The notes beneath the pieces are model-generated. The model was not told where the DNA came from and did not search any database. It saw only the letters and a program-made list of their open reading frames with translations. From Catajapyx aquilonaris (taxonomy: Eukaryota), in contig KZ538930.1 in the NCBI GenBank assembly GCA_000934665.2, positions 1 through 39,872 on the forward strand: DNA of 39,872 nucleotides. The letters are read 5' to 3'. The translations under genes were made by a program, and so were the position numbers. This document shows, one piece after another, positions 3,574 to 38,112 of the stretch. How positions within the stretch are numbered: position 1 is the first letter of the stretch; the number at the start of each line of letters is the position of its first letter.

Positions 3574-3976
3574 CAGTACCCTGCATTAATGGCCATGCAC
3601 AGACATCGCCACCAGTCCAAGAAAGAGCGGAATTAGGGGTCGGTGGGCTGCGTCCAAAATACTTGGACAGCTCAAGATATCGCGGTTGATTCAAACGCCT
3701 GCTACAAAGATGGATCACAGCGGATCACAGATATATCTGTGAGATGAATTATAAGGCCATTGCGATTCCTATCAATGTATTGAGGTTGTGAACCAGTTAT
3801 TACACTTACCACGCGAATGCCTGTTAATCCACCGCGATATCTTGAGCCGTCTATATAGAGCGGTCTCGTGAGCAGTCTTGATATCAAAGTATTTTGGACA
3901 CAGCCCACCGACGCTTAGTTCCGCTCAATCCCGCCAGGTGGCGATGTCTGTGTATAGCCATTAATGCAGGGTACAG
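3574..3976. mobile_element. pogo/Tigger-like MITE
   Basis: TA-CAGTACCCTGCATTAATGGC ... GCCATTAATGCAGGGTACAG-TA, with imperfect inverted arms of ~90-110 bp. Confidence 0.88.
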
Positions 3977-4761
3977 TACATGCACTGCATGTCACGGATG
4001 CATAGCTGAGATATTTTGGCCAAAGTTCTGCGAAAGTGCAATTTTTCAAGTTTCATGTGGCCACAGAACACTCCAGGAACCTGCAATAATTGGAATTTCA
4101 ATACTTATGGCATTGGTTGATCATACCCAATTATTTGAGCGATATATTCTTCCCTAGAATTTATATTTAATTAACATGGTGAGCTATCACATTGTAATAT
4201 CGTATTCAGAAGAGCAAGCAAGGGCATTCGCTGAAAGGTTTATATCAATTCAGATCTGGACTAGGTGTCTGGATTCACTTGGCAGAAAATGTAAGTTTAC
4301 CTAGGACGTCAGATCCTTAGTAATTTATTTATCCTTTATTATCTTCATTATTATAATATATTCTTTAATAACCTTTGTATTTGTATTTAGGTGTCATTTT
4401 GAATACGGTATACGCAAATGCATATCAGCCACACTGGATTCCTAATCAGCATTGTCATTTATTGACTGGTCTTTTTCATTTCAGCCGTATCCTGACTGCC
4501 AAAAGCGTCATAGCCAAACAGGGTGCGGTCATTCTTGCACTTAACAAGTCCCCTCCACCTACTTGGCAGAATCTAGGCCAGGGGCCGTAGTATGTTGCTA
4601 CATGGAGGTGAGAATAATTATTCTTACGTGTGTGCGGCGCGGAGAGTTAGATCCCACCCGATTAGTCCTCGCGGCGGGAATTTCCTGCACTGGACAGGGT
4701 CTTCTCCAAACAGTACTATCATGGTATCTGAAGCTTGTTGCGACGCGACGCGAAGGTGTCT

Positions 4762-5589: not shown

Positions 5590-5639
5590 GGGGGGGGGGG
5601 GNNNNNNNNNNNNNNNNGGGGGGGGGGGGGGGGGGGGGG
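5590..5639. other. Poly-G run containing an assembly gap
   Basis: N run flanked by G homopolymers. Confidence 0.9.
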
Positions 5640-7077: not shown

Positions 7078-7142
<65 letters not shown>

Positions 7143-7412
7143 TAATAATAATAATAATGGATACCCCGTGATAGGCCCCTTGGGCCTCTTAGGGGATCAT
7201 CTTTTGAAAACCCGACTTTATTCATTTGCCTGAAATGTGATGGATTTTGATAGTGGGAGGAAACGGGAGAACCCCGAGAAAACCCACGCGAACACGGAGA
7301 GAACCCATCGAAACTTTATCCACATAAGTATCCTCCGTCCGACCCGGGGATCGAACTCGGGACCTTAGAGGTGGAAGGCTGCGGCGCTAACCACTCGGCT
7401 ACCGTGTCGCCC
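7078..7412 (-). mobile_element. tRNA-derived SINE family A (V-domain-like core) with (TAT)n tail
   Basis: Minus strand: A box GGTAGCCGAGTGG, B box GTTCGATCC, core GTGTTCGCGTGGGTTTTCTCGGGGTTCTCCCGTTTCCTCCCAC. Flanked by a TCTTCTTCTTCTT direct repeat. Confidence 0.92.
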
Positions 7413-7427: not shown

Positions 7428-7446
7428 ATTATTATTATTATTATTA

Positions 7447-7482
<36 letters not shown>
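7428..7482. repeat. (ATT)n microsatellite
   Basis: Directly visible. Confidence 0.95.

Positions 7483-7484
<2 letters not shown>

Positions 7485-8083: not shown

Positions 8084-8163
<80 letters not shown>
8084..8163. repeat. (ATA)n microsatellite
   Basis: Directly visible. Confidence 0.95.
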
Positions 8164-8237: not shown

Positions 8238-8595
8238 CAGAGGAGCCCGAGTGGAACTGCGGTAACGTATGCAACCACCGATGTAAGGGTCCCGGGTTCG
8301 ATCCCAAGCCCGGGTCCCCCCCCCCCNNNNNNNNNNNNCCCCCCCATCTCGTGCAGAGTTAGGTCGTCTCTGGCTTCGTCTCGGGTCGAATCTTTGATAG
8401 ACTAATCCATCCGGGGAGTTCACAAAATGCACTGTTACAGACACTGCACATCCCCTCCCTGCCCGTGGACCAGGGCGCTTCGCTATAAGGTTCCAAAAAT
8501 GTACACCATGTACACCAGGTTTAATGAAATAAAGGTCGGTGCAATACCTCCTCTGAGGGAGGTTCGCACTACTCAAATTATTATTATAATAGAGT
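8238..8595 (+). mobile_element. tRNA-derived SINE family C
   Basis: A-box-like GTGGAACTGCGG, B box GGTTCGATCCC, ATT-type tail, 11-bp TSD AAAGTTCCATT (8227-8237 and 8596-8606). An inverted homologous copy lies at 37415-37745. Confidence 0.85.
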
Positions 8596-8891
8596 AAAGT
8601 TCCATTTGGGTTGTAGCATTCTGATTGAAATGTCTACATATTTGCTGATGATAGTGAGTTCACACACACGGTCCCTGCCTCCCTGGTGCCTAAGAGGGTA
8701 TACGACGCGTCTCAAGAGAGATCACTGCAACGTACTATAACAGTTATTTTCTAAAGCGTTCGTGTGAGTATTATGCAAAGACTGTATATCATCCGCATGA
8801 TCCACCAATGAAACCCTTTCGGACACTCCGCCACGACATTACCCTCACTTGTGCAGACCTAGTTTGGACTACAACGAATACAACTCTTATA

Positions 8892-9140
8892 CAGTGTTCC
8901 AATTATCCTGGTCCTTTCAGTTATCGCAAAATTCTCCCCAAGTTGTTACTTTTGTGTAGCTTTCTTTCCTCCCCGATGGAGGTGCCCAATTATTATTCCC
9001 AGGTGTGGTTGAATAAAGCAGCTGCTATATAATTGTGCATCTCGATCGGGGCGCGCACAAAGCTACACCAAAGTAACAACTTGGAGCGAATTTTGCGGTA
9101 GGTAACTGAATAAAAGGACCCGGATAATTGGAACAAACTG
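8892..9140. mobile_element. TA-flanked MITE (Tc1/pogo-like)
   Basis: TA-CAGTGTTCCAATTATCC ... GGATAATTGGAACAAACTG-TA, with ~70-bp imperfect arms. Confidence 0.85.
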
Positions 9141-9545
9141 TATAGTTAACTTATAGGTATGGCCAAGTATGGCGCGTGCAGTCAACAGATTGGGAAACAG
9201 TCCCTATATGATTTTGACTTTCATTATGAAAAATTGTTTCTAATTAAGTGCTTCTTTTTCGCATTCTACTTTTGATTGCCACTATGATGTTCCAATTCCT
9301 AGTTAAATACGAGTATTTCTCCAGAAACGTACATAAGAGTACAACATGATCTCTCATAGCATCTGTTTCTGTGGATGGTCGTAATGAGTTGTGCGATTCC
9401 TTCCTGAAAATCAGAAAGCGACAAAATGATACCAAATTTGAATTTTCGGGGTTTGAGTTGCAAAACAACGGAAATAATTATTCTCCCATTGGGGAGTAAG
9501 TACCGTTGTGAAAGAGAAACGTCACTTTGCACCATTCACATACAT

Positions 9546-10320
9546 AAGAGGGGCCGCTCAAAGATCAATGCCTCCTATTGATCAAGGAGTGAGATGACCA
9601 CACCAGTAACGCAACGACTTGTTCTTTTCCTTTTTGCTCCGGTTGGGCTTGGACCGCGTGGACAATCTGGGCAGGACTAACTACTAGTCTATCGGCATGC
9701 ACTGTGTATAGTAGAATGTAGTAAAAGAATGCTGCACCTGGCTGTGAATATTACAATCTGTGTAGAAAGAAACCTATGCAGGCTAGGCATTATACAGACT
9801 CTCCTCTCAGTCACTCATCAAAAGCAAATGTCCCAACAATGCAATGTTGTCACCGAGGAAGGAATCAATGCATTGCCTTAAAATGTGCACACCACTAGCA
9901 GGAAACCATTGGTTTCTACTGTTTCAAATTGGATCCTCATGCAAGATTCATCCTGCATTTCAGAAAGGACACAGCGCGGTGTTTTCCTTACGGTTCCCAA
10001 CTGATTCCTAATGTATCCAAGTGGTTCCTGGACCGCTTGATTCCGCTTGTTGGTTAGGCCTACCTATCGATTCCATGTGCTGGTTCCTGATGGGAATACC
10101 TGCACACCAGTTCCTAAAAGTGATTTCCCCTCCTTTCCCCTCGACACGAAGCACACGAAGCAATGTAAGGAAAAATAATACATTCGTGCCATTTAGAGTA
10201 TTGCACGACATCTGTTCACGTGCCATTCATTCGAGAAAAGCTCGGAGAAAAGCATGGAAAAAAGTCCCGATATAACTCGGAGAAAACATGGTTTGGTCAG
10301 TGATGGACGGCAGTTTCATA
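9546..10320 (-). mobile_element. Highly decayed mariner-like relic
   Basis: Mariner-TIR-like GAGGGGCCGCTCAAAGATCAATGCCTCCTA near 9548. Weak N-terminal-like LRVEGKGGEI and PRCVL (cf. ARWVP) on the minus strand. Confidence 0.3.
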
Positions 10321-11132
10321 GAAGAGATTGAAAATTGAGGGGAAAGACCACAAAAGGTCTCTATATGAATAAATAGGGCAGTTCGAAATGTCGCAGTTTC
10401 AGCGATCTACACAACTTCACATGATTTGATTCATTTTCTGCAGCGCATGGAAGAGTTAACCAGGGATCCACATTCTGTGGTCCTAAGGTAGGCGGGCCAT
10501 CATTTACCCTATTTGGCTAGAATTACTCAGTGTTGCGCGCCTAATGGGTTTATTTTCTTACTAAGTCTGTGATTAGCCTAGTTTAAAAGTGGGTATATTT
10601 ATCTGGCACACTTTGATTGGTGTCGATTCGACCTCTCTTTTAAGTTATTGGAATAGCTCAGCATTCATTAAATTTCATAAACCCTGATCTGTTGGGGTCA
10701 CTCTTGGTAATGAAGTGCAGCGTGATGCGAAATAGGCTCCCGTCCAAGCTCCCGTCTCTAGGTGCTTCCCAATCAGGCATTGATAGATTGCATGCATGGA
10801 GCATATCCTACATCTCGAGAGTCTGGCATCACTAAAACTGAAGTAAACCGATGGCTCGCCCCCTCAACATTTTTAATGGAAGGGCCCGGGTCCAGGGATG
10901 GACTAATGAGGGATCGATTGATGATTTATTGGGTTCGTGAGCGATTGGGCGGTGAATTACAAGGTTAACGAGCGATTCCGTGGTAAATGGTGACGTAAAT
11001 GAACGAATGGTGGGTGAGTGGGACTGGTGGATAATGAATAATAACGATGTAAATAAGCTATTGGCTAACGAACCAGTGAAAAAGCCGTAAATGACACACG
11101 CACGCACGCACGCACGCACACAGGCGCGCATT

Positions 11133-11364
11133 CCTATCCTTGTGAGGTTTTTCCAAAATTTAAAATTTAAAACTAACCTAACCTACAAGGAAACACACGA
11201 AATTTTGGTGAAATATATTTTTACTGTCTTTATGAGGTATTTGTCGATTTTCCCCTATCCTTGTGAGGCGTGTGTTCACTATGGGGTACAGGAAAACTAC
11301 CTCGTAATGACAAAATTCCTCACAAGGATAGGAAAAACGCGAAAAAAATTCATCACAAGGATAG
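11133..11364. mobile_element. Small non-autonomous element with CCTATCCTTGTGAGG inverted/direct repeats and an AACCT tract, beside (CACG)n
   Basis: Two forward and two reverse copies of the 15-bp motif, plus internal ACTAACCTAACCT. Confidence 0.6.
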
Positions 11365-11670
11365 AAATGCGCGTCCATACCGGCACACACAAGCACGCGT
11401 TTAACTTTCCCCTTCATAGGCTCATGTAGCGACTTCGACTTTTGCGAGTTACGGAATGTACAATGTGTATTTAAAAAATATATATATAAAGTTTTGGCCA
11501 AAAGTATTCTAGCGATATGCAACCATCAGCACGCTTTCAAGGTGAATTCTTTCTTTCTATCTATCTACTTTTTGGTGTGTGTGTGTGGGGGGGGGGATGT
11601 CAAGTTCTGAAGTCCTGGTAATACGACGAGACGTCAAGATATGTTTGGTACTCGAACTCCTACACCATTG

Positions 11671-12402
11671 CCTGACCCCGGCAACCAGCGATGCAGGGAT
11701 GCATACTTGTCAGGATGGATATCGTCAACGTCGTCGCCGGCCTTTCGGGCCCATACCATGCTTCTTCCATGCTGACCCTCTACCACCTGTATCATTTTGG
11801 CAGACGAATTCGTATAATACCCACCAATACAGTGGGTAACCTAACCATAATGCGACTAAGATATTACAACAAACGCAATCTGATATCTGAAAGCCATATG
11901 GACAATATTAAGGGAACTGATGAAATCTTTTCCCCCTCTGCTGTTGAATTACTGCAGGAGCAGGACATAACAGAAAATGTGGTTTGATGAGTGGCAGCTG
12001 AAATTGGAAGCCTACTTGAGCAGTCTGGAAGCGTTCTGGAGGAGACTCAGGTGTAGGGTGCGAGAGGAGGGTAGCTGTGGAACAAGAGGGTGTGGACCGC
12101 AATCAGAAATTGAACCATCCTGCAGATCTCCCCCTCCCCGAATCTCAACCGGTAAAGATGACACCGACTAGCGTTTGGGTGCTCCTCGAGACTCGGCGCC
12201 ACCCACATTGCATCACTCTTGTCCTACTTTGTGTGCAAGTACTATACAGAGTGTTGACGAATTCATCTGCCAAAATGATACGGGTGGTAGGGGTGCACGT
12301 GGATGAAGCATGGCATGAGTCCGAAAGGCCGGCGACGATGTGTATCCTGACAAGTGAAGGGATACCCCCGTACGTGCCTGCATTGCTGGTTGCCGGGCCA
12401 GG
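11671..12402. mobile_element. Unclassified element with ~145-bp diverged inverted arms
   Basis: 11671-11813 is the gapped reverse complement of 12257-12402 (e.g. GTATCATTTTGGCAGA / TCTGCCAAAATGATAC). Confidence 0.75.
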
Positions 12403-12619
12403 CGCTCGTCACAGTGCATTTATGCGAAGAAACCAAAATGGGAAACAAAATGCCAAGAAACTCTCTTTGAAGCACATTCTGCAAAGGTACCAAATTTGAA
12501 ATGCGATCCCTCTCAGGGGGCCCTCATTTAATACTTATATAACTTACAATTTCGGACAAAAAAGGTTTTACGCTTATTAATTACCGAAGGTGAAGGACTG
12601 AACTACCAATTGAAGAGAT

Positions 12620-12877
12620 AATGGATACCCCGTGATAGGCCCCTTGGGCCTCTTAGGGGATCATCTTTTAATAGACCGACTTTATTCATTTGCCTGAAAT
12701 GTGATGGATTTTGATAGTGGGAGGAAACGGGAGAACCCTGAGAAGACCCACGCGAACACGGAGAGAACCCATCGAAACTCTATCCACATAAGTATCCTCC
12801 GTCCGACCCGGGGATTGAACTCGGGACCTTAGAGGTGGAAGGCTGCGGCGCTAACCACTCGGCCACCGTGTCGCCCG
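12620..12877 (-). mobile_element. SINE family A (copy 2)
   Basis: Near-identical to 7157-7412, with a 13-bp TSD CAATTGAAGAGAT (12607-12619 and 12878-12890). Confidence 0.93.
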
Positions 12878-13709
12878 CAATTGAAGAGATGAGATGAGAA
12901 ACCCCATAAGTCCGTACAAGTAGATTTTTTAGGAGAGACATAAAACGACACAAGTGCACGATACTGCTGTTGCCTACAATGGAATATTTTTTTAAGTAAC
13001 CCACATGCAGAGGCAATACTTTCATCCTGGTTTGAAAAGATTAAGTGACAATGGGTGTATGTAGTGTTTTGTTAAGGGCCGTGGACATATAGGGTTTCTC
13101 GTCTCATCGCCCTTGAAGGGATATATGAAGACCAGAATGCTGTACTTTTTTATAAACATGGGCTTCATTTCCATTACAGAATGACACCCTTCACTCAAAG
13201 TCCCACAATTCAGTTCCATCTGACCCCTTCTCGTCTTCAGTTTGATCACTTCTTTTTTGAAGATTATGGGACTGACCCAGCCTTGTGGCCATACAGCCCC
13301 TTACTTCCTATTTATTGAATGCAACAAAATACACCAATACAAAACAATAAAGCAATAAACTGCACTATTAGGTTAAGCTAGCATCCACTACTTCGCCTCT
13401 AGCCATCATTTGCCATGATACATGAATGCAGAAATCCCATACGTGGAGTGGACATAAGGGGTTTCTCAACTCACTGGGTCATTTTCTGGGCTTTTGCCTC
13501 ATATTCTTGTGTGGTTTCAGCACACCCTGGATATATAAGGATGTTGTGCGTCCATTCCCGGCGATAACTCAATTTAACCAAAAATGTGACTTATGGGCTC
13601 TTCTGACCGCTTCAATTTGAAGAAAATCTGATAGTTTTATTTGGCAAACATTCCATGTAAGATATTTGGCCAAGGCAAGAAAAGGCTTGGCTGCGAAAGT
13701 TTTCAGACA

Positions 13710-13712
13710 TTT

Positions 13713-13747
<35 letters not shown>

Positions 13748-13986
13748 TACCCCATTGGGAGAATCGGCGCTCCATTAGGGGGGGAGGGTGGAGTACCACC
13801 ATTGGATGGGGCCAAGGATAGGGAAGGAAGGAGGCGGCTGTGGCCTATTATACTGAAGCGACCCCGGAATTATCCTAGGAAGACCGTGGAAACCACAGAA
13901 AACCACGGTCAGGGTTGCCGGCCCCGGGAATCGAACCTCCCGATTAGCAGTCGGGCTCCTTAACCACCACACCAACTTGCTTCGGT
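13710..13986 (-). mobile_element. tRNA-derived SINE family B (Lm1/Talua-like body) with (TAAA)n tail
   Basis: Minus strand: TGGTGTGGTGG A box, GGTTCGATTCCC B box, CCCTGACCGTGGTTTTCTGTGGTTTCC...GGCCACAGCCGCCTCCTTCC. TSD GTTTTCAGA. Confidence 0.88.
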
Positions 13987-15122
13987 GTTTTCAGATGTAT
14001 GGTCCCCTCTGGTTCTAAAACTGCTTCGATCGTTTGTGTAAAGTAGTAGCTATGTGCCATCATGTGGCTAAGTTCATTTTTAGGAAAAATTCGTGTTTTT
14101 GACACCAAAACGGTTCTTGCATATTGCACGCACTAATATATGGTCGACCATCTACGAGGAATTCACATTATAAGAATTTGGGTGCCATAATGGAGACCTG
14201 GAGGCATGCGCACATTGACTAACGTTTTGTATCCTACCCGGCCATATCTTGCAATTCAATGAAGCTGAGCTCTGAAAATATCCACATCCATTTCATTCCA
14301 TCCGAGTCTGCCTCCAAACAAGTAGATTAAAGTGTCACTCATTCTGCACTGGTGTAAATCATTTGCCCCCTTTGCACTACGGAACACTGGTCCCCTTCCC
14401 AGCCATTTTCTAAAGCAGCACCTCCAGTATGCAGCTCAAACCATACCATTCTAATAAATTGCACTGAAAGTGTCTATAACGGACCCTGGACATAGCAAAA
14501 ACTTGTCCAATTATTATTGCGGAACCGACTGGCTTCCGCTATACTATGCATGTCTTATACTTGATCTTCTTCATCTCTGCCAATTTTATAGGCACAGCAC
14601 GCCCAACATAATTATGGCTCTATACTAGTCTTATTGGTAGTTGCACAGGGCATGCTCGTGTGATTCCAGTTTTTAACAATCAACACTTTCCGAGAAAACG
14701 GAAGCTTCCCATATACAACTGACGACTATAGGAACATGCAGGTAACTCATTTGTCATTTCCCACCAGCATGAGAAGCTACAAGTGACATCATCCATGAGA
14801 AGCTATCCTTTCCCCGCCTTTCCCTTTCCACCAGTCCTGCAAGAATTTCCTAACATATCCCTCGTCAAGTTTCCGACCGCAGCACCAATTTGCTTCCAAA
14901 ACCGACACATTTGACATTCAAATAACACAGCTGGCGTTTTGTTTATCATGAATTTCAAGTCAACCAAAAGGGTTTAGCGGACATAAATTGGAGGTTCATT
15001 ATTCACATAATACATGTGTGCACCATTACGATGGGGAGAGGTGTTTTTTCGTATGTACGTGCGCCCAGAGGCTTAACATAATTGACACTAGGTTGAAGTT
15101 TTCATCACAGAAAATGCGACGT

Positions 15123-15124
15123 GG

Positions 15125-15168
<44 letters not shown>
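15123..15168. repeat. (GGCA)n microsatellite
   Basis: Directly visible. Confidence 0.95.
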
Positions 15169-15484
15169 CCCGGAATCCATCACACTTTCAGAGTGCCCGC
15201 ATAGGCACAACTGAACATAATCATAAAAATAAACGCAAAGGTTGACCTAACTTTTTATAGGCTGAGGATGCTTGGCTGCTCCTGTTACTCTTATTCTGCA
15301 TATTCCAATAATTATGGTCTCAGTACAGGCAAAAAAACAAACTGCAAAAAATGCCTCTACTATGCTTGGTATTGTTTTAGCAAGTACAGTAGACTATTGC
15401 AAAATCTGTACACGCACAGTCATGTCACGAGCTACAATGAACTGCATAATATTTCTCAAGTACTGTACTACGTAATGGCCTATA

Positions 15485-15918
15485 CAGGGTGAAGGGAAAC
15501 TCGCGGACAATAGCCAGGTAGACTGATAGAACTCGTAAAACTAATATAGATATGTGCAATGAGTTTTGGCTTCGTTGCGTAGTTAATGAGTACGGCGCCC
15601 TTAAAGTGTAGAGGGCCGGATGGTGGAATATGATGCAAAAAACAACAAAGTGCACTGGTGTGGTACCCTGATTCTTACTCTGACGGATTTGCTCACCTAT
15701 TGCACATGGATGATGTGTTAAGGGACCGAGGCAAGGGACCCTCGAACTGACTTTTGCTTCTTAGAAGCTGGCGGAACAGATGTGACGTCACGAAACTTTG
15801 ACGGCGCCGTACGCATTAACTACGCAACGGAGCCCAAAACTAATTGCACATTACTACATTAGTTTTACCAGTACTATCAGTCTACCTGGCGATTGTCCGC
15901 GAGTTTCTCTTCACCATG
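15485..15918. mobile_element. Tc1/mariner-type MITE with ~115-bp TIRs
   Basis: TA-CAGGGTGAAGGGAAACTCGCGGACAAT ... ATTGTCCGCGAGTTTCTCTTCACCATG-TA. Confidence 0.92.
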
Positions 15919-16027
15919 TATAAGATAACCTACTACTGTACAACTAGACTGACAAAATAAACAAAAAATGAACATTACAGATGCGTGGAATTGTGCTCGA
16001 CATATCACTGCAGGGAAATGAAAATTA

Positions 16028-16698
16028 GTGGATGTATTAAGCTCAAACCCCGAAAATGCTAATTGAGCGGGAGAAAAAACGCCCAGACCCAGGTCTGGTC
16101 GCTTTCAATCCATCCAGTCCTAGGTGTGGTCGTGTTAACCGATATTTGCCAAACGTCCCCTGTACAGGACACCTGCACAGATATATTTTTTATTTATTGT
16201 GTTAGTTCTTTTTCTGCTGCTAAAGAGCTGCCAGAGTAGTCACGAGTGCTTCAGTTGTCAACACAGCCTCTTGACACAGCTAATAATGCAGATTCAAAAT
16301 TGCTCAGCACTGCTTCAGCTTTTTAAGATATATCGGTTGAAATCTGCGCTACACATTCGTATCGGGAGATCCAGCGCTCTTACCTACTAGTAAGTAAGGT
16401 TAGGTCATGGGTATGCTGGTACAGCGTGTCCCTACCCTTACATTATGTCTCCCATTACAAAAGTCTTTCCGAAATCTGCTGTCCCCTATATAATAATAAT
16501 ATAATAATAATGGGTGAATTTGCCTATAGTGCCCCCCCCCCCCCGGGCACTATAGGCAAATTCACCCATTATTTGGACAAGTAAAATTTGCGATGGATTC
16601 TGTTCGCTTTGGGATGGCTTGAAAACGACCAGACCCAGTTCTGGATGGTTTTTGTTCGCTCAATGAGCATTTTCGGGGTTTGAGCCTTATAGATGCAC
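16028..16698. repeat. Diverged ~88-bp inverted pair enclosing a perfect 29-bp-arm hairpin
   Basis: GCTCAAACCCCGAAAATGCT in the left arm (16028-16115) mirrors AGCATTTTCGGGGTTTGAGC in the right arm (16611-16698). The hairpin is at 16506-16573. Confidence 0.7.
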
Positions 16699-17966
16699 TC
16701 ACAAGAACATTCATGTACTTTTCCTCTACAGTTCTACAGTATAAACTTTGATTCTGTTGCTTGTACATAGGCCTACACATTATGCAGCTATTGAACACGA
16801 AACACCACACCAAGGGAATCAGGGATTAACCACTTGGGTACTCCGGTGTACACCTGCAGTGGTACTCCCAGGTACTCCTTAGGTACCTTATTCTTTGGTA
16901 CTCCTTGGTACTCCTTGAATTTGGTACTCCAGTGTACACGTGACAGTCGAGTGCCCTTGACACACACAGTTCTTGCTTTCTCTCTCTCTCTCTCTCTCAT
17001 GATCACTAACCGATAGTTGCTACTTAAAAAATAATGATTTTACACACTAACGTGTAGCTATACTGTAAGTTAAAACGTAATCTCAGCAAATCTAGCGCCG
17101 TTATGTAAGCCTGATTTCCACCATCACGGATCTGGACCTCCAGATTATCGACTTACATTGCATGAATATCCTTGCGAGGACAGGGACACACACACACCCA
17201 TAACCGCCTGAAGTGAACCTATGAAGCCTAACTAAACACTGGTCAAGTCCCACACGAAAGCTTCTTTGCCCAACCTTTGACAGCATGCACTGAGGTCTTT
17301 CATAATTATGTTTTGTACCATCCAGATGGCGACGGTGTGCACTACAGCTTCAGTTTCTGATATGGGACGTGGTAAGGTAGGCATATCTCACCAGGCTAGT
17401 GAAAAATTCAACAAAGTAGAGTGGATGGTAGGAATAACAGTGCTGGTCAATCCCCTCCACACGCATACATGAGGCAGGGGGAGAGTTTCATGCGTTGATT
17501 AACGGGTTGTTAGTTTTCGGAGTCTGCACACTAATTAATTTTTCACGAACAATGCGCTAAATAATGCCGCGCATTACCAGGCGAACATGTGCATCAGACG
17601 CGCGGAGCATTGAGTTTCCGCAGTGAAAATAATGTACTGATAGAAGCTGACAGCTACTCACTTATTCCATTTGTTTGATCACATTCTGGACAAGTTCCAA
17701 CCACTAGACTAATAGAAACCCGACTATTTTCCGGGTCTGGCCATCACCCATCCAGTCCAGCCCATGCAGCCCATTCCGGAATGGCAAAACCGAGACGACC
17801 TGCAGCAGCATCGTTGTCAAAAGCAGCAGCCAGGCACGAATCGCACTCGGAAGCCGCTTTTGTCATAATCCACCAGGATCCACTCCCGTGCACAAACAAT
17901 TTTATACAAATGCTGCCATTTACCGCTAAAAAAGGGATCTCCATACACCAGTTTGTGCTGCAGCTA

Positions 17967-18011
17967 CCCACCACCACCACCACCACCACCACCACCACCA
18001 CCACCACCACC
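17967..18011. repeat. (CCA)n microsatellite
   Basis: Directly visible; source of the poly-T and poly-V ORF runs. Confidence 0.95.
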
Positions 18012-19683
18012 TCACTCACATAACGCATGCAGCCTATTTCCCCCTCCCCATTCTCTGGGATAGATACTAGTGGTAGGCACCTGAGCACGTGTCAATCACA
18101 GCCCATATAACCGCAGTGGCAAAGGCATTATCATGTAGCCCCAAAGTAGGTCTACATTGCTGTGGTTCCTGCGGTTTCCAGTTGGCATTTGGTTGTTCTC
18201 TCCGCACAGCACCAGCCAGCCAGCCAGCCCCATTTCATTATTCGCTCGGCCCATGCCCTCCTCAGGCTCTCCAAACGACTACTGCTCCATGCGGATCCAT
18301 GTCAGATTCCGGCCAGTTATGGCTCAACCGATACACGCATCTAATGTGGCCGACGGACGGTTACTCTTGCCAAAATCATGACAACCACTTCTTATTTACA
18401 CTTGGTCACACGCACTCCTGTCGCCTGTCACGTTGACATGTACACAATCATTTCACTCAATATCACCGGCAACCAGATAATCAGCCAATTAATACTTATT
18501 GCAGGCCGGCACCTGTCCTATAGTCATAATTTGCCCGGCCAGACGGGAAAGCGTCCGGCTCTCGTAAAACGAAAAGCATACCAGGACTCTGCAAATGCTA
18601 AGTACTACTAGTACATGTATAGCGTCGAGCGCCTTGAAAATGTGCGGAAGCACGCACAAATGTTAGTTGACACGGCGCAATGCGTCTAATAACTCGTTTC
18701 CTCACTCGCAATAAGTTCATGTTTATTCACAACGGACTAGTGAGATGCATATCCCCGACCAACAATTCATACCGGGTGACGTCCCTCCCCACTGTTACAG
18801 CTCAGCATCAACAACCCTACATTCAGCCGGTGTCTACTTTGTCCCAAATTCCCTGCTGCTTAAGTTTAAATTAAGGTCCTGAAGGTGGCAGCCTATTCCT
18901 GAGTAATAGGCGCCGCCTCACTCTCAAGACAGTGCTCATGCAAGACCTTCTCAAGGCGGACAAAAATGCATATTTGTAGTGTGTTCAGGGCCAAATATTT
19001 CAACTCCACGTATGCACAATATTATTGACTTCACTTACTATCCTCGAATTCTCCATCTGTCTCACATCATTACATACCCTCTTCCCAGGTACATCCCGGT
19101 ATAAAAGTGCACAAATGAAAACTCTGTCATCAAAGTGACCTGTGGAGCCCTTGTCTTTCATGAGCTTCTTGGTAATGCGATTAACATTTTACGCTTGAGA
19201 CGTACCACTTGAGAAGGAATGGTAGGGTAATGATGATAACAACTTTGATCATTTTACCCCTGCAAAACTCTCGCAAAACTCCTCCGAGCTTTTACACTAC
19301 AAGTCAAGTTTTTGACGCCAATTTCATTCTATCACAAGGCAGCTTGGGGCAAATCCGTCACTCATTTCGGGCTACATATGGCTGCTTCGATGTGGATATT
19401 ACGTGACGCAAGAACGCTGCACACCAATCAGGCGTCAATTGAGGGGTGTGGTGGAAAAACACAATAACCCACATTTTTTGTCATTTTTGACCTAAACACC
19501 TAGCAACTATATATGTAAAAGACATGACAAACATTTTGGCTCACTCAAAGTTCACATATCATGCACGAGACGGCAACACGGGCTAGATAACAACCCACTT
19601 GCCATATTTTCTGGCACTTCCTCTCGCGGAAATACTCGACAACCCACCATATATTTATACCCTTCACATTCTTCCGTTTAATA

Positions 19684-20117
19684 CAGGGTGTAACAAATGT
19701 TTCTGGCCCAGTCAATATTATACAAGGGAAATGCTCCGTTTTTTAAAGCTACCCTCATCTTTTATGTTGATATTGTACTACTCCCATAATCTCCGGAATA
19801 TGCTGTCCCCTGTATGACTCGTTTTCCCGTCCATGTCCTCACTGGCTCTGCTTTTGTGCTCACATGAATGAGAGGTGTGCAATGCAAGTGTTGTCTGTCA
19901 AGAAGATTCCTTACAAGTGCTTTGTTATCAATGCCTGATAATTGTGGGCCAGGCTGTAAGATCAAGTCAGGCCAAAAAATCGTGACCAGTTAATAAGAGA
20001 GTTGACCAGGAATGAGCAACTGTCACACAAGAGATACATTCAAACTTGTGGACAGTTTGGGAAGAGGTGTAGCTCCATCTTTGAACAGAAATGGTGTGCA
20101 TACTGAATTATTATTAA
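19684..20117 (+). mobile_element. Internally deleted Tc1 relic
   Basis: TA-CAGGGTGTAACAAATG terminus. About 19968-20117 translates with frameshifts to RPKNRDQLIRE...LVDSLGRGVAPSLNRNGVHTELLL*, resembling the Tc1 C-terminus (LVDSMPRRL..V...GG.T.Y). Confidence 0.65.
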
Positions 20118-22397
20118 CACCTTACATCCTTCCATGTCTGAATAAACTCTCATATAATTATACACCTTAGGTTAATTAAAAAAATTATTCGCCCTCTGGC
20201 CGCCGCGCCGTGTCCGTCATTTACGGACACTCACTTTGATATATATAATTTTGGCAAAGAATCTATAAATCGTAAATGAATGCGGTTTTGGGCATATTCA
20301 CAAGCAAAACAAGCCGAATTCACCACAAAAATGACTTGCTCGAGTGATTCGTCGGACTTTTTCGTATGACGTCATCTTCCGGCGGCTATATTGGAAAAGG
20401 TTATATGCGCAATGATATAGAGATTGTATGAAGCTCAGCTCAATTATGGGAAGCAATTAATTAGATCGGTTTCTAAGAGATAACCACGCATCGTAGGGAA
20501 CTCAGACCTTCACTTCGCTATACTGGTTCTTCACAAATAATAATCTTGGTACGTAAAGCTTGTGCGTCATTTACTGACCACCTTGTATAAGCGAGTCCTG
20601 ACTCACTACCGCCTGATATGAATCCTACCCCCTCACGCAAAACGACATTAACACAGGGCTCCAAGACACTCACGAATACGCGAAGTTGTCATGCCCTACA
20701 TTTGACACAAGGCACCACGGAAATTGATGGGATTGATGCAAAAACAGGTTAACTCCACCTTTGGCCGAAAATGAGTTATTGTAAGGTTCATACCTTACTT
20801 TATCCTGTCATCATACTTCCCACCGTACATACACCCCTTATCATTGCAGTGAGACCTCCTTCCACGTTGGGTTCATTTCCAATGATCCTTAGCAGCAATC
20901 CACCAAAAAGGGAAAGGGTTTCAACAACAGGGGTCAGAAAGCAAGTCAGTTTGGCTTGGGCCAGATGCTGACCGGAGGTGACGCTGGCCATAGCAGAGGG
21001 GCATGTTTCCTACGTTGATACATCAGGACCAGATGAAACGGTACAATTGCACACCAGGTCCATCTGAAGCTCTGAATGACGCACGAGAAGCTGCCACGAG
21101 CAGTACGAGAAGCCTCCGCGAGCAGCACTACGAGCAGACCTTGCGAGAAGCCTATACCTAATTCGATATTGTTATTTCCACGTCAAGATTGAGAACTTGT
21201 ACTGTATTGTCTGGGAACCATAATATAATAATATTAGTGTTTGACAGTGAACTGGTATTCTCGAACTCACTTCCCCACTTCACCAGAATCAGAAATCTTA
21301 GTTATGTTTCTGCCATCTTGGGGCCATTCTGCATATTTTGGTTCAAAAATCAGACCTGTCATGCTCTCCACTGAAGAAATATAGCCGCTAGAATCCTAAT
21401 ATCCTCATATGAGGACATTCGAAGAAAAAAAAATAATCTCCAAATGAGATGTGACTTTTCTTGAAGTGCCTGTACCTATACACCCATAAGGAAGTTTGAT
21501 TTTCGCTACAGTTCACTACAGACTTTGGTATCCGCATATTAAACAAAAAGTTATAATTACAAACATTAAGAATTTGCCGGTAATGCAGTTTTTCTTTGTT
21601 TTCTTGAAAGTAACAAAAGTGGACTTATCCTGTTTTTGCACTAAACCCTTCAATTGCCCTATACGCCAAGTCATAGTAATTCTGCTCAACACAGCTAACT
21701 ATAGCTTCGGCCATCTTCAATTTTCATTCATGTTGTCAAAAAACATATTTGCACTTAAGCTGAAGCTATTGACAGATTGTGCTGTTCAGAGTACAACAGC
21801 AAAAGTTTCTTTTTATCCTAACGTGGAAGTACTAGATCACATTGACAGATATACATCATATTATCCTCTTATCCTATTTCAACATGGGTACAACACCCTC
21901 CATGCATTGGAAAGAGAAAGCATGTTTGTTTTAAATAATTAAATAATTCTGAATCATTTCAAATCACGCCACGTATTTCGCGTCAAGTTACATAAGTCAC
22001 TTACATTTATAAGTTTCCGTTCAATTTATGGGAGAACTATTTCCGAAGCGGTATGTTCATTGCCAGGCGTCACTTCTACCAACAACTTTTCATCATTCAA
22101 TTACAGCCCAGTCTCGATAACCCGATCATCGGTAATCCGATATAGCTTTACGACGTGTCAATTAGTGTTCTGCTACGGGTACATACGCTCTGCGAGTACT
22201 TTGCACACGCCCACTCCGGCTCTTGCAAAACCGAAACACTGAAAAACAAACGCCCTCTGCGTTTTGCTTTGTGTACCAGATAGCTGCATTATTTTCATTT
22301 TAAATGCATTTCTCAGCTTACGATAATAATGATCGTTTCTTCAAATAACGCTGCAGTATACACTCTACTGTCTTTTGTTCAATGTACTGTAGGCCTA

Positions 22398-23160
22398 CAG
22401 GGTGTCCATATGATTACGACCCAAAACCAAAACTTAATAACTCAACGTTGGTTACAATACTAACATATCCGGGTTACGTCATTCCAAAAAAAGAAAAGAA
22501 ACAAAATTGGCATTTTTTCAATAAATTGTAATGTGGGTACCCTACCCTACGGTGAGCGACAAAATAAACATGTGATCTTCATATCCTGTACATGCTGGGG
22601 GTAACCATAGCCACAGTGCCATCTTTAAACAACTGTTAAGATCATTTCTGACCTTGACCTGGTAGGGAATGTTCTTCTAATGACTCCACCACAGGACATA
22701 AATCCAACGAGATTAAGTCTGGTGCCCTCTATGAGGCGATGAAATTGTCATTTTGCACCAATATTCGTCAACCCATATTTGACAGGAGCCTCGTAGTACA
22801 AATACTTGAGCATGCTGGAGAAAATGACTGTTCCTCAATTTACCAGCTGGCCTGGAACTCACTTCCAACAATATGGCGTACCACCCCAATGCACTCTCAT
22901 GGTAAGGCAACATTCTGAACAATGAATTGCCTGACAGGAGATGGATCAGCCTAGGTAAGACAATATTGCATGGTCCTCTCGGGGTTTCCTAAGTCGCCAC
23001 TCTCGCCAGACTTAACCTCGCTAGATATTTTCCTATGTGAGGGTCACGTAAAAATCAATTTTCCTATCAGGTCAAAATCAGAAACGATCTTCAATAGTTG
23101 ACACCAAGCAAAATCTAGGCGTTGTTGTTATGGTTACGCAGGTATACCCATCACGGTACT
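22398..23160. mobile_element. Decayed Tc1/maT-like element with an inverted duplication of the transposase 3' end
   Basis: TA-CAGGGTGTCC terminus. Plus strand gives YLSMLEK..FQQYGVPP..LNNELPDRRWI..SPDLTSLDIF (cf. FQQDGAPPH..RWIG..SPDLTPLDF). 22520-22724 is a diverged reverse complement of 23003-23160. Confidence 0.75.
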
Positions 23161-23583
23161 AAATACGTGGTCTGTGACAGACTGCTGCCTGGTATATTTT
23201 CCGGACTATTTAGAACGCCCAGTTTTATACAATTTATTGAAAAATATAAGATGAGAAGGAATCTTGCGAGTCGCTTCCTTTGAAATGGCAATCCGAGTGT
23301 GTGAGAGATAACCATCTTTGAGATATAAAATCTTAGTTTTGGGTCTTAATACTCTGGCAAATGTACAGTACGCATTTACTATTATTCGTGACCCCGGCAC
23401 TTCCTGCCTATATGGCACATTTACTGTATACCTATTACCTCATTTTGGATTCGTTCCCTCTCCGCCACCCACTCAGCTGCCTACTGCTTTCTCATAATCC
23501 ATGTTCGGTCATGACACCACTTCTAGGTTCCCATGGGACACAATATTGAGACTGTCCTGTACCTGGTTTTGTTGTGCGCCTAC

Positions 23584-23665
23584 CCATGTGTCTTACGCAT
23601 GGTAGGAATGGTTAACTCCAACAGGTGATTTGCAGTCACTTACCTGAAATAGAAAAGAAAAACAA
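23584..23665 (-). promoter_or_regulatory. Candidate recursive splice site (3' splice site fused to 5' splice site) with cryptic RS-exon
   Basis: Minus strand TTGTTTTTCTTTTCTATTTCAG|GTAAGT (junction 23644/23643). No AG for ~150 nt upstream. Downstream donors GC|GTAAGA (+47 nt) and GG|GTAGGC (+60 nt). Confidence 0.65.
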
Positions 23666-24116
23666 TGATATCATATGTAGATGTACATAACCCACCGTAA
23701 GGCAGCATTCACAATTAAGTCGAAAATATGTTGGAAATGCAGGTGTTGTTTTTATATGGAACAATATAATCGTGTCATCGTAATAAGAGGATCATGCTAT
23801 TGATAGCAACATTAAGCATTTTGCAACATGAGTACAGGTATATTGGAAGGCCGTTTGAAAGTCACAGCAATGGCTCAATTATTTACTATATTTTGACAAA
23901 TTCGGATCAATAATCCTGGCACTACATAGCCGTCAAGCCACTATCAAGGTGAAGGTGTTGTTCTATGAGAGTAAAATCTCGATATAACGCTCTTCAAGGG
24001 ACCGGCCAAAATGAACGTTAAAAGCGGGAACTCGTTATAATACAGCTACGTATACGGAAAATACGATTTAATTCACCATTTTCTCAAGAAATGAATGCCT
24101 TCACTGTTGCTATGTA

Positions 24117-25042
24117 CGAGGAGTGATCAAAAAGTAAGGTCTCCAAGGCTGTAACATTTATTCTGTATGAACACAAATGACGAAACTTACAGGGTACATG
24201 AGGACAATGGACATCTACTTTTCTACATAGTTTCCACACCGAAGAACGCACTTATCCCATCGCCAGACCAGTTTCTGAATCCCTTCCCAATAGAAAGGGG
24301 TGCCCTGTTGACAGCACCTGTCACGCAGCCTTCTTCACCTCATCGTCGCTTCGGAGATGCTGACCTGCCATGTCTGCTTTCAGGGCTCTGAATAAGTGAT
24401 AGTCTGTGAGGGATAGTTTGGGACTATAGGGTGTGTGAGGAAGAACCTCCCAGTCGTATCCATTCAGCAAAGCCATGGTGTCCCTCGATGTGTGCGGACG
24501 GGCGTTGTCGTGGAGAAGATGACCCCAGTAGTGAGCAATCCTGGAAGTTGCGACTATCAATTCGGAGCGCAGTGACCCTGGCGAAGTTGCAGAAGGCCAT
24601 CAGGTGGAAACAACCAGGATTGCTCACTGCTGGGGTCATCCTTCTCCACGACAACGCCCGTCCGGACACATCGAGGGACACCATGGCTTTGCTGAATGGA
24701 TACGACTGGGAAGTTCTTCCTCACACACCCTATAGTCCCGACCTATCCCTCACAGACTATCACTTATTCAGAGCCCTGAAAGCAGACATGGCAGGTCAGC
24801 ATCTCCGAAGCGACGATGAGGTGAAGAAGGCTGCGTGACAGGTGCTGTCAACAGGGCACCCCTTTCTATTGGGAAGGGATTCAGAAACTGGTCTGACGAT
24901 GGGATAAGTGCGTTCTTCGGTGTGGAAACTATGTAGAAAAGTAGATGTCCATTGTCCTCATGTACCCTGTAAGTTTCGTCATTTGTGTTCATACAGAATA
25001 AATGTTACAGCCTTGGAGACCTTACTTTTTGATCACTCCTCG
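24117..25042. mobile_element. Palindromic mariner (DD34D) derivative made of two 3' halves
   Basis: TA-CGAGGAGTGATCAAAAAGTAAGG at both ends. Arms 24117-24544 and 24614-25042 each encode HDNARP..WEVLPHTPYSP(D/K)LSLTDYHLF (34 residues between the Ds) and RWDKCV..GNYVEK*. Confidence 0.96.
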
Positions 25043-25415
25043 TATATATGGATGCTTATAAACTTCGTTGTCCTGAACTGACCTGCCCAGATACCACGTA
25101 GACCTCGAAAATATCCCCTGAAGCACCCAAAACAATATCGAATAACCAGGGTCATAGTTGACATAAGCCGCCTCTCCGCAACGTTCACATGCTTAACACT
25201 TGGTGACAAGGCTCACCTCCTTACACCATCCCACAATAGCTTTCATACTTGAAAGGTGGATGGGGGGAAATGCCATGCTATTCATAGGTTGTTGCCAATT
25301 GCTGACCGCGCCATACTGCCAGCCTGCTTCCACCACATTCCGCCAGCAAGCCTATCTGCTCAGCAGAGTCTCCCCCACCCAAGCAAATCTCAGCTGGTTC
25401 AAGCCCTGTACATAC

Positions 25416-25865
25416 TATGGGGCTCAAATGGTTTTGGCCACTTTATCCTGGTCTTGAAGCAACCCTTCCCACACACACACCCAGACCTGTTTTCACTAAG
25501 GTGTGGCACGTAAAAAAGACAACTTTTCAAAGCGAGTGTAAACTAACCTAACCGAACCGAACCGAACCTAACCTACCCTAACTAACCTAGGCTGAGAGAA
25601 ATGGACTTTTGTGAAACCCTGCAAAACGAAATAGTGGGGTCATGTCCCCACTGTAACGGTAATATTCTCGTGTATGAAGCAGTTTTGCCCTGTCGGGACC
25701 TAAAATGTCCCCACAATTTGGTCAACGTCCCCAGAGTTACAGTTACACACCTGTTTCCGTCTCCACACCTTATTGAAGACAAGAACACACCTGCTCAACG
25801 TGGGGCCTGTGCGAAGGGTTGCTTCAAGACCAGGATAAAGTGGCCAAAACAATTTGAGCCCCATA
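25416..25865. mobile_element. Element with ~57-bp inverted arms containing an (AACCT/AACCG)n / GTCCCC-type insert
   Basis: TATGGGGCTCAAATGGTTTTGGCCACTTTATCCTGGTCTTGAAGCAACCCTTC is mirrored at 25808-25865. Confidence 0.8.
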
Positions 25866-26527
25866 GGACGTATATACACACATCATACGCCTTTCGACGT
25901 TATATGCGGGATATGTGTCTCTGGAGGGCAGGGAAATTCAGCGGTATATGCAGCAAAGCGTTCAAAGCGGGAAGAGCTTAAACGGGATAAATTTACCATT
26001 GGGCCTCATGGAGATGATCCAGAGACCCGAAAAAGGGGCGTCCAAAGCGTGATAGCGTTATATGCGGGAGCGTTACACAGTCAAATTCGATACAACGCTC
26101 CCGCATATAACGCTACTTTTGGGCTGTCCCTCGAAGAGCGTTAAATCCAGGTTTTACTGTAACGAGATTTTACTGTATTTTGTTCTACCCTTCACTATGC
26201 GACAGTGCTGTTGGTTGTAAGGTGTCAGGAGACGTTTAGGGTGTGGCGGAAAATGGGATTTGGTAGCATCCTTCATGGAAATGATAGGGCCTGCTAACAG
26301 GGAAAGCCATAACCGCACGTGCTAGTCGAGTTGTCTAGCCATCAGGTTAATTCCCATCATTCTCATTAGGAATTCATCAAAATTAAATTCCAGTTGCACC
26401 CCTAAACTATACCTCCCTTCTGCCATAAATGAAAGGCACAGCATTTTGGTCAGACTACTATATATTATGCTAGGGAATCGTCCTACCTGAAGCGTATTAG
26501 GCAGTCTTTTACCCCCCCCCCCCCCNT

Positions 26528-27658: not shown

Positions 27659-28486
27659 CCCTTTGACGACTACGGACATCATAATTATGATGTCTTGAGA
27701 TTTGCCCTGACAACTTGGGACATTTTTCAACTCGTCAAATTCCGGCCTCACCGATTTTCTTGAAATTCGGTGCATTGGTAGCCCACTCCAAGGGATGAAA
27801 ACGCACCTATTACCTGCTCGAAATAATTGACACACATTGGAGGGGGGCATATTATGTTAATGCAACGAATTTCAAGAAAATCGGTGAGGGCGGAATTTGA
27901 CCTCTGCCCCCCTCCAATATGGGTCGCAGGGTCCTTTTGGGCTTATGTCGGGTTTACAGGCCATTCGCCGAATCAATTAGGAAAGAGTACCTGCGGCTTG
28001 CTGACCCTTTGAATCGTTGTTTTGCTACTGGGTTTGAAGTTGGGGGAGTGACCAGGGACCCCGGAATTAATTCCTCTAGCTGAAGCAGAATGCAGATGGG
28101 AGCATTGTTGTCATTGTTGCCGAATCGTATGTTGCTAGGTGATGAACAAACACAACGATGAAAATGTGGAAATCGTGACTAATTGATTCGGCGAATGGCC
28201 AGAAAACTCGACTTCAGCCGGTGCCGTTTTTCATCTCTTGGGGTGGGCTACCATTGTACCGAATTTCAAGATAATCGGTGAGGTCGGAATTTTATGATTT
28301 GACCTCTGCCCCCTCAAAAATGGGTCACAGGGTCATTTTGATCAGGTAACGATAGGTAATCCGGGTAATCCGGGCAGTCCGCGGATTATTATTCATTAAA
28401 AATATCACTCTTCATCAAATTTCCGGAAAAGGGGAAAAAGAACTCAGGCCCTAAGGCAATGGCTCAAAAACTCCGTCGTCAAAAGG
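27659..28486. mobile_element. piggyBac-type non-autonomous element
   Basis: TTAA-CCCTTTGACGAC ... GTCGTCAAAAGG-TTAA, with internal ~70-bp inverted and direct subterminal repeats. Confidence 0.88.
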
Positions 28487-31666: not shown

Positions 31667-32324
31667 CGAAAATACTGTAAGTTTCCCTTCGCGATTATTT
31701 CCCAAAGTATTGTATATACGATCGTATGTATGAGGTAATATTTTGCCACCAGCAGTTAGAGGACATTATTCTGCATGGGTCAGCGCAGGAGTAAGAGGAA
31801 GAAAGAGACTTTCGCGCCAAGCATGCCCACTCCATAAGCGCTTGAGTCAGAAAGACATGGACGAACGATGAAGTGCTGGAGGTTATCGGCGAATTCCACG
31901 TCATCGACCAGACAACTGTATCTACACTAACCCGCAGCAAATGGCCGTGACAGTGCGGCAGAGGAGCAGTGGCGTCGAAGACCGTCGACGACTAAGGTGA
32001 ACGTCGAACGTGTGGATGCCACGATTCGCGCTGACCGACGGGTCACTGTCTGGTCACAGTTGTCTGGACGCTGAGGTGGAACACGCGGATAACCACTCAC
32101 ACTTCATCTGTCCTTTGACTCAAGCGCTTATGGAGTGGGCACGCTCGGCGTGAAAGTCGCTTTCTTACGCTTCCTCCTGCGCATGCACGGAGTGCACGAG
32201 GGAGACCAAATTGGCTCACCCATGCAGAATAATGTCCTCTAACTGCTGACGGTAAAAAATTTACCCACATGTACAATACTTTCGGAAATAATTGCGAAGG
32301 GAAACATTTTCGGAACGACCCTCG
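31667..32324. mobile_element. Palindromic mariner derivative made of two 5' ends
   Basis: Diverged arms of ~230 bp. Right end TTTTCGGAACGACCCTCG-TA. The spacer encodes RRPSTTKVNVERVDATIRADRRVTV (mariner GRPST..DRR.T motif). Confidence 0.88.
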
Positions 32325-33391: not shown

Positions 33392-33396
<5 letters not shown>

Positions 33397-33456
<60 letters not shown>

Positions 33457-33728
33457 TCATACCCCGTTATCAGCCGGCGGCTTTTTAGGGGGGAAATTTT
33501 TGTTTGACTGGAACTCTTTGCTTTCATTTTATTTGCTTTTTGGGATAGGATAGGGATGGAAGGAAGCGGATGTGGCCTGTTTTTTACGGAAACGACCCCG
33601 GAATTATCCTGGGAGGACCGTGGAGAACCACATAAAACCACGGTCAGGGTCACCGGCCCCGGGATTCGAACCCAGGACCTTCCGATTAGCAGGCGGACTC
33701 CATATCCACTACACCAACCTGCTTCGGT
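33397..33728 (-). mobile_element. SINE family B (copy 2) with (TAT)n tail
   Basis: A box TGGTGTAGTGG, B box GGTTCGAATCCC, homologous to 13710-13986. 12-bp TSD ATTGAACATAAT (33385-33396 and 33729-33740). Confidence 0.92.
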
Positions 33729-37891: not shown

Positions 37892-38112
37892 AATGGATAC
37901 CCCGTGATAGGCCTCCTTGGGCCATTCAGGGGATCATCTTTTCATTCACCGACTTTAATCATTTGCCTGAGCTACAGTATGATGGGTTTTGATAGTGTGA
38001 GGAAATGGGAGAACACCGAGAAAACACCCGCGAACACTTGAGAGAGCCCATCGACCTTCTATCCACATAAGTATCCTCTGTCCGACCCGGGGGACGGGGA
38101 TCGAACTCGGGA
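37892..38112 (-). mobile_element. SINE family A (copy 3, 5'-truncated, more diverged)
   Basis: Homologous to 7157-7363; retains the B box but lacks the A box. Confidence 0.88.

Follow-up and report, generated by a model that had tools for sequence, protein, structure and literature searches.

A candidate recursive splice site of the Drosophila type on the minus strand of a repeat-rich, apparently gene-less stretch of DNA

Introduction

The closest described counterparts of the site reported here are the intronic ratchet points of Drosophila (Ubx, kuz, luna). In Drosophila, 197 ratchet points have been placed in 130 introns of 11-133 kb, and they are strongly conserved (Duff et al., preprint 10.1101/006163). 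All but one of them (196 of the 197) carry TT at positions -5/-6, and their branch points lie mostly between -36 and -21, with a peak at -30 (10.1101/006163). According to an excerpt of Joseph & Lai (PMC8605326), each comes with a cryptic exon that measures about 50 nt, is out of frame as a rule and ends at a weaker donor. The fly ratchet points were established from junction reads and lariats, from saw-tooth coverage and from their deep conservation; the site described below is a candidate read from the sequence.

A wider comparison is available from Shepard et al. (PMC2773006, excerpt), who give the ratio of sense to antisense ratchet motifs in introns longer than 50 kb as 8.2 in sea urchin, 21.7 in fruit fly, far above 10 in mosquito (>>10), 4.0 in bee and 8.0 in beetle. 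The same excerpt gives a ratio of 0.9-1.5 for eight vertebrates, and a background of about 0.07-0.12 motifs per 100 kb per strand. In the locust, a recursive site has been predicted in a 230-kb intron of NPF1, with support from U2AF65 immunoprecipitation (PMC8892266, excerpt). The invertebrate predictions of both studies, as excerpted, resemble the present site in their juxtaposed splice-site motif and in their setting in a large, repeat-rich genome of invertebrate type. They differ from it in that they sat in annotated large introns of known orientation.

Recursive-splicing exons of vertebrates were reportedly described by Sibley and colleagues in 2015. They share with the present site a YAG/GT junction, a short exon with premature stops, and competition between the regenerated donor and the donor of the exon (PMC5126111, excerpt). 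Human recursive sites, on the other hand, lack the Drosophila consensus according to the same excerpt, and the motif is not enriched in vertebrate introns in that of Shepard et al. (PMC2773006). The excerpted lungfish study reports recursive splicing at levels like those of human. A last comparison concerns pseudoexons or poison exons of giant introns, for example in DMD (PMC7175933, excerpt), which also combine a strong cryptic acceptor, nearby donors and a frame-disrupting exon deep in non-coding DNA. Pseudoexons need no donor at their first base, and a perfect GTAAGT at +1 sets the present site apart from them.

Results and Discussion

Anatomy of the candidate site

The window, that is, the whole stretch of DNA that was analysed, is 39,872 nucleotides long. 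Its minus strand reads ...ATTGTTTTTCTTTTCTATTTCAG/GTAAGTGACTGC..., the slash marking the acceptor/donor junction here and in the motifs below. The elements around this junction, with negative positions counted upstream of it, are the following.

23645-23644, minus strand: acceptor AG, within a CAG motif
23643-23638, minus strand: GTAAGT abutting the AG, candidate regenerated 5' splice site (ratchet-point donor)
23646..23664, minus strand: polypyrimidine tract, with 17 pyrimidines among the 20 positions from -3 to -22 and TT at -5/-6
23646..23796, minus strand: stretch of 151 nt with no AG, leading up to the acceptor, the preceding AG being 23798-23797
23719-23714, minus strand: CTTAAT, branch-like motif, A at -72
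23665..23673, minus strand: better-placed branch-point candidates by motif match only, TGAT (A at -28, 23671) and TCAT (A at -23, 23666)
23597..23643, minus strand: candidate cryptic recursive-splicing exon of 47 nt, followed by TGC/GTAAGA (donor 23596-23591)
23584..23643, minus strand: alternative cryptic exon of 60 nt, followed by TGG/GTAGGC (donor 23583-23578)

A sequence-only reading of the same DNA had proposed this junction as a ratchet point, and its account of the letters was accurate. A pyrimidine tract with TTTCAG does abut a perfect GTAAGT on the minus strand (AG at 23645-23644); the stretch from 23796 to 23646 is free of AG over 151 nt; CTTAAT lies about 70 nt upstream (A at -72); and the alternative donors begin downstream, after 47 nt (G at 23596) and after 60 nt (G at 23583). 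It was also right that the 60-nt exon carries stops in all three frames, and it had missed that the 47-nt form keeps one frame open. Yet 47 is not a multiple of 3, so that inclusion of the shorter form would shift the frame. Both downstream donors, TGC/GTAAGA and TGG/GTAGGC, agree with the consensus on the intron side alone and fall short of GTAAGT, donor strength being taken here as consensus match rather than as the score of a trained model.

These two donors bear on an alternative reading, by which the junction would be the ordinary 3' splice site of an unrecognised short exon of 47 nt, 60 nt or more, with GTAAGT as its first six bases by coincidence. Such an exon could belong to a 5' UTR, to a non-coding RNA or to a poison or alternative cassette, the last corresponding to an "expressed recursive-splicing exon" in fly terms. 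Its attraction lies in the strong acceptor, in the presence of donors at 47 and 60 nt and in the open frame of the 47-nt form. It also has precedents: some fly exons with ratchet-point features are expressed, for example the Ubx microexons (Duff et al., preprint; PMC8605326, excerpt), and vertebrate recursive-splicing exons can be included and then introduce premature stops (PMC5126111, excerpt). We nevertheless consider this reading unlikely, given that the available donors resemble the consensus on the intron side only and are inferior to the GTAAGT at the junction, that the 60-nt form is stopped in every frame and the 47-nt form shifts the frame, that no neighbouring acceptor-donor pair with an open frame and strong signals was found on the minus strand, and that a Pfam signal is absent from the ORFs of at least 50 aa in the window.

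Returning to the ratchet-point reading, the upstream elements differ in what they contribute to it. Two motifs, TGAT with its A at -28 and TCAT with its A at -23, lie within the branch-point range of fly ratchet points, a fit by motif only. The AG-free run contains three matches to YTNAY (A at -141, -72 and -55), of which CTTAAT is one, against about two expected per 150 nt by our own estimate of 1/64 per position; CTTAAT was therefore dropped as evidence. In length, the AG-free run itself ranks first on the minus strand and fourth over both strands. Among the 11 pyrimidine-rich, acceptor-like AGs of the window, however, an AG-free run of at least 50 nt precedes seven and one of at least 100 nt precedes three. 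Because three of the 11 comparable AGs reach 100 nt, the run is mostly a by-product of richness in pyrimidines and AT, and it was set aside as independent support.

The predicted RNA fold of positions 23570-23800 is not unusually structured (z = +1.05; 169 of 200 shuffled sequences fold at least as well). In this fold, the pyrimidine tract and the junction are unpaired.

Chance expectation

The octamer AGGTAAGT taken alone is at chance level: it occurs once on the two strands of the window, for which Markov models of order 0-4 predict 0.79-1.44 occurrences. Its copy at the 23638-23643 junction is also the only AGGTRAGT on either strand. The juxtaposition with a strong acceptor is much rarer. 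Of 4,525 AG dinucleotides on both strands, 11 combine at least 17 pyrimidines among the 20 positions from -3 to -22 with YAG, and GTAAGT is found 20 times in 79,744 positions (both strands). A strong acceptor followed at once by GTAAGT is thus expected about 0.0028 times per window, or 0.0019 times with an order-3 rate. GT follows 3 of 67 strong acceptors, against about 3.8 expected, so that a general excess is not seen and multiplying the acceptor and GTAAGT rates looks fair.

The remaining features of the site are uncommon in the window as well. Among its 281 AGGT sites, the candidate is the sole one to combine at least 13 pyrimidines out of 20 with a donor matching at six of six positions. 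As a background for TT at -5/-6, this dinucleotide is found at two of the 11 AGs with at least 17/20 pyrimidines and at nine of the 67 with at least 15/20. A GTAAG lies at +30 to +80 after 19 of 280 AGGT sites, and the looser GT[AG][AG]G after 65 of 280. If independent, all features together (0.0028 x 2/11 x 19/280) would be expected about 3e-5 times per window, a product of our own making that is partly post hoc, some features having been noted after the site was seen.

These numbers also measure the strength of the plainest alternative, namely that a T-rich tract and CAG came to stand before GTAAGT by chance, without function, in DNA that is intergenic, antisense, or intronic and ignored by the spliceosome. 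We regard this chance juxtaposition as a serious, though on the whole doubtful, explanation. The octamer count (one seen, 0.79-1.44 expected) is what it predicts; the AG-free run follows from composition, as the three comparable AGs with at least 100 nt indicate; and both YTNAY and loose donors are frequent, GT[AG][AG]G at +30 to +80 after 65 of 280 AGGT sites being an example. Furthermore, 0.0028 per 40 kb amounts to about 70 chance sites of core quality per Gb, and to hundreds when many windows are scanned, and the candidate was selected out of a very large scan. Even in Drosophila, recursive splicing affects only 6% of the long introns (Duff et al., preprint 10.1101/006163), and no recognisable exon was found in the window by Pfam or by a simple exon search. 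What chance accounts for less easily is that the features known from the literature are all present together, each of them being uncommon here (TT at two of 11 AGs, GTAAG at +30 to +80 after 19 of 280 AGGT sites), with the expectation of about 3e-5 per window for the full set if independent, partly post hoc as it is. It also sits poorly with the large introns of invertebrates, in which sense-strand motifs are 4 to more than 20 fold over background (PMC2773006, excerpt).

By themselves, the statistics are unable to decide between a ratchet point and chance. Sense-to-antisense ratios of 4 to more than 20 mean that a sense-strand motif in a large invertebrate intron is real at least three times in four; a vertebrate host would leave the motif almost without predictive weight, because the ratio there is 0.9-1.5. 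We weighed these figures by combining priors of 5-15% (for the window lying in a large intron in the sense orientation) with ratios of 4-20, from which posterior values of about 0.13 to 0.74 are obtained. The extra sequence features raise the posterior. It is lowered by uncertainty about the taxon, by the size of the scan from which the site was picked and by a possible dependence of the features on one another. The candidate motif is, in addition, stronger than a threshold hit of a motif survey.

Copy number and repeat context

The sequence-only reading had named a location within a multicopy repeat as fatal to its proposal. This test was run and the site turned out to be single copy. A contig covering 21612-23999 (2,388 nt) carries it with no differences, at depths of 31.4, 17.2 and 25.2, which equal the single-copy baseline in each of three DNA runs, all from one sample. 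Binned depth agrees for 22024-23595, where the bins are at baseline. The next bin, 23596-24100, is raised (824 in run X1, against a baseline of about 30), and we attribute this rise to a repeat that would start at the end of the contig, near 24000. No second copy of the site was found within the window. The site is therefore outside any young multicopy repeat, although old copies, 80-95% alike, may exist for 23596-23999, where the raised bin also holds a repeat. Related sequence was looked for as well: an exact 28-mer across the junction had no match in a metagenome scan, and no look-alike turned up among the other windows of the scan. A search for sequencing runs over 19000-26500 yielded four DNA runs of one sample, a run of unknown kind and no RNA run. 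The run of unknown kind (X5, with the same species label and 31.8 Mb of contigs) covered only repeats in 8400-24100, with no single-copy bin, and has no bearing on expression.

These depths speak to another explanation, according to which the splice-like signals, inert today, would be left over from a decayed gene fragment or from a mobile element that is old and diverged. The surroundings lend it some colour: the window is dense in repeats, a mariner-derived palindrome begins about 470 nt away, SINE and MITE-like copies are frequent, and the depth table cannot split the site from the repeat near 24000 within the raised bin (824 against about 30). On the other side stand the 2,388-nt contig, which spans the site at single-copy depth with no differences in all three DNA runs, the failure to find a second copy inside the window, and the lack of Pfam matches among the local ORFs. 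We judge this explanation very improbable.

The repeats of the window deserve a description of their own. The palindrome (24111-25048) is near-perfect, 947 bp long, with arms 94.4% alike and a centre near 24580. Both arms consist of the 3' part of a mariner element, as copies inverted to one another, and a C-terminal fragment of the transposase (HDNARP...YSPDLSLTDYHLF) whose spacing, counted by eye from the translation, is DD34D has been kept in each. A transcript of the palindrome, if there is one, would fold into a hairpin of about 470 bp that lies, on the minus strand, about 470 nt upstream of the candidate. Relatives of the mariner fragment, at 43-55% identity, come from ants, a sandfly, a bee, a spider and a nematode, and are mostly arthropod. 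The CpG observed/expected ratio of the window is 0.77. Vertebrate values lie far below this ratio. The mostly arthropod relatives of this animal-type mariner and the CpG ratio point to an invertebrate animal as the likely source of the DNA and, with the very repeat-rich context, the ratio suggests that it is probably not a fly.

Two families of high-copy elements were observed. The first, of very high copy number, occurs at 7154-7412, 12618-12876 and 37892-38092, and in the bin 12592-13115 the contig depths add up to about 165,000, the baseline being about 30. The element ends sharply at 12876, where 156-166 contigs have loose ends, and resembles there the beginning of a minus-strand SINE of the tRNA-Ser type. 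Position 12876 is joined straight to 15482 in two contigs per DNA run, skipping 2,605 nt, and numerous loose ends are found at 15481 as well as at 12876. These joins and ends point either to 12877-15481 being a nested insertion within a repeated element or to other copies in which its two flanks adjoin. The second family is a tRNA-derived SINE with copies at 13815-13986 and 33547-33728 (83.5% alike; bin depth about 77,000 against about 30). The only tRNA-like call made by ARAGORN, a tRNA-Ser(GCT) at 33651-33722 on the minus strand, falls inside it. Most of the SINE copies that could be oriented are on the minus strand.

Microsatellites of (AAT)n or (ATT)n with 18-27 copies lie at 7078-7158, 7428-7483, 8084-8163 and 33392-33456, each next to a SINE-like copy; the copy at 7154-7412, for instance, adjoins the plus-strand (AAT)n run at 7078-7158. 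They are probably SINE tails. Pairs of short inverted repeats at 2199-2772, 3570-3980, 15481-15922, 27727-28302 and 31681-32305, with arms of 80-195 nt that are 80-93% alike and 200-600 nt apart, look like MITE or foldback-type elements. Runs of N at 5602-5617 (16 bases) and 8327-8338 (12 bases), and single N at 26526, 30590 and 35990, are assembly gaps or uncertain bases.

Gene content and strand bias

The window had been described as apparently gene-less, and this holds within the reach of Pfam (ORFs of at least 50 aa), Rfam and a simple exon search. Pfam returned no family at E<=0.001 for the 370 X-free stop-to-stop ORFs of at least 50 aa, a set from which short exons could escape, ORFs below 50 aa or containing N having been left out. 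For the first 150 ORFs (all at least 70 aa) taken at E<=0.01, two sub-threshold matches were obtained, Transposase_1 at 1811-2041 and PHD_pln at 12832-13071, both on the minus strand. Rfam gave no family over the window. The simple search for acceptor-donor pairs with an open frame yielded a single weak candidate, on the plus strand (11420-11541), and no minus-strand pair was convincing. A lack of genes would be as natural in an intergenic desert as in a giant intron.

Between 13001 and 33000, G exceeds C on the minus strand by 7.7% (z = 7.2; 16 of 20 1-kb bins), with no A/T skew, so that the T>A component is absent. Outside 13-33 kb, G exceeds C in 10 of 19 bins. Strand skew is known as a signature of transcription from mammals only. 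An excess of G and T on the non-template strand is reported for human genes (PMC10030826, excerpt). The skew may be due to transcription, to replication or to old repeat content. It is the one observation that speaks for the earlier suggestion that the window would lie inside a giant intron of a minus-strand gene, and it is not diagnostic.

Sites resembling a donor (at least 7/9 matches to MAG/GTRAGT) are also more numerous on the minus strand, 101 against 69 on the plus strand, and GGTAAGT occurs four times on the minus strand and never on the plus strand. This minus-strand excess is in part to be expected from the G>C skew.

Comparison with known ratchet points and proposed mechanism

Set beside the intronic ratchet points of Drosophila, the site has in common with them the pyrimidine tract (17 of 20) leading to CAG/GTAAGT, TT at -5/-6, by motif match a candidate branch-point A in the appropriate range, and a candidate out-of-frame cryptic exon of about 50 nt, either the 47-nt form (frame-shifting, followed by GTAAGA) or the 60-nt form (stopped in all three frames, followed by GTAGGC). 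The setting, with no recognisable exon for tens of kb, is shared as well. The premature stops that mark recursive-splicing exons of vertebrates are likewise found, through stops in all frames of the 60-nt form or the frame shift of the 47-nt form. Finally, the site is unique in the genome as judged by single-copy depth in three of three DNA runs of one sample. The interpretation offered by the sequence-only reading is therefore supported in part: the single copy of the site, the TT at -5/-6, the branch-like A at -28 and -23 by motif, the shape of the cryptic exon and the lack of a recognisable exon around it argue in its favour, and the AG-free run and CTTAAT, on which it had also drawn, add little.

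On this basis we hold it to be a tentative but credible proposition, a little short of even, that the site at 23643 is a genuine and used recursive splice site of the Drosophila type in a long intron of a minus-strand gene. We extend slightly less confidence to the fuller version, in which the site would be used constitutively as a ratchet point, would obey the full Drosophila grammar and would lie in an intron longer than 40 kb in an invertebrate other than a fly. If true, that grammar would comprise here TT at -5/-6, CAG/GTAAGT and a weaker donor behind an out-of-frame cryptic exon of about 50 nt.

The following mechanism can be proposed. U2AF and U2 would recognise the CAG (23646-23644) together with the T-rich tract and a branch region whose A is at -28 or -23, and binding of U1 to the weaker donor 47 nt (or 60 nt) downstream would define a short cryptic exon. 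Joining of the upstream exon to 23643 would then rebuild a strong 5' splice site, xxx/GTAAGT. The rebuilt donor would beat the donor of the cryptic exon, and the next intron segment would be removed from 23643, the mRNA keeping nothing of the site. A weakened GTAAGT would be expected to force the cryptic exon of 47 or 60 nt into the mRNA, with a frame shift or stops, as described for the Bx and kuz mutants of the fly (PMC8605326, excerpt). In all this, the anatomy of the sequence is what we observed; transcription, use of the site and a host gene are inferred.

Biological meaning

Whatever its status, the site is one candidate of a well-described kind, and the mechanism is not new. If it arose by chance, it shows how a perfect-looking motif misleads when RNA data are not at hand. 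If it is used, it would mark a giant intron and the transcribed strand in otherwise empty-looking DNA of a non-model organism. It would also be a further instance of fly-type recursive splicing outside flies, for which the excerpted precedents are motif enrichment (PMC2773006) and the predicted site of the locust (PMC8892266). Under the fuller version given above, recursive sites would be callable by sequence alone in unannotated, repeat-rich genomes, where they could reveal the strand and the extent of giant transcription units with no visible exons.
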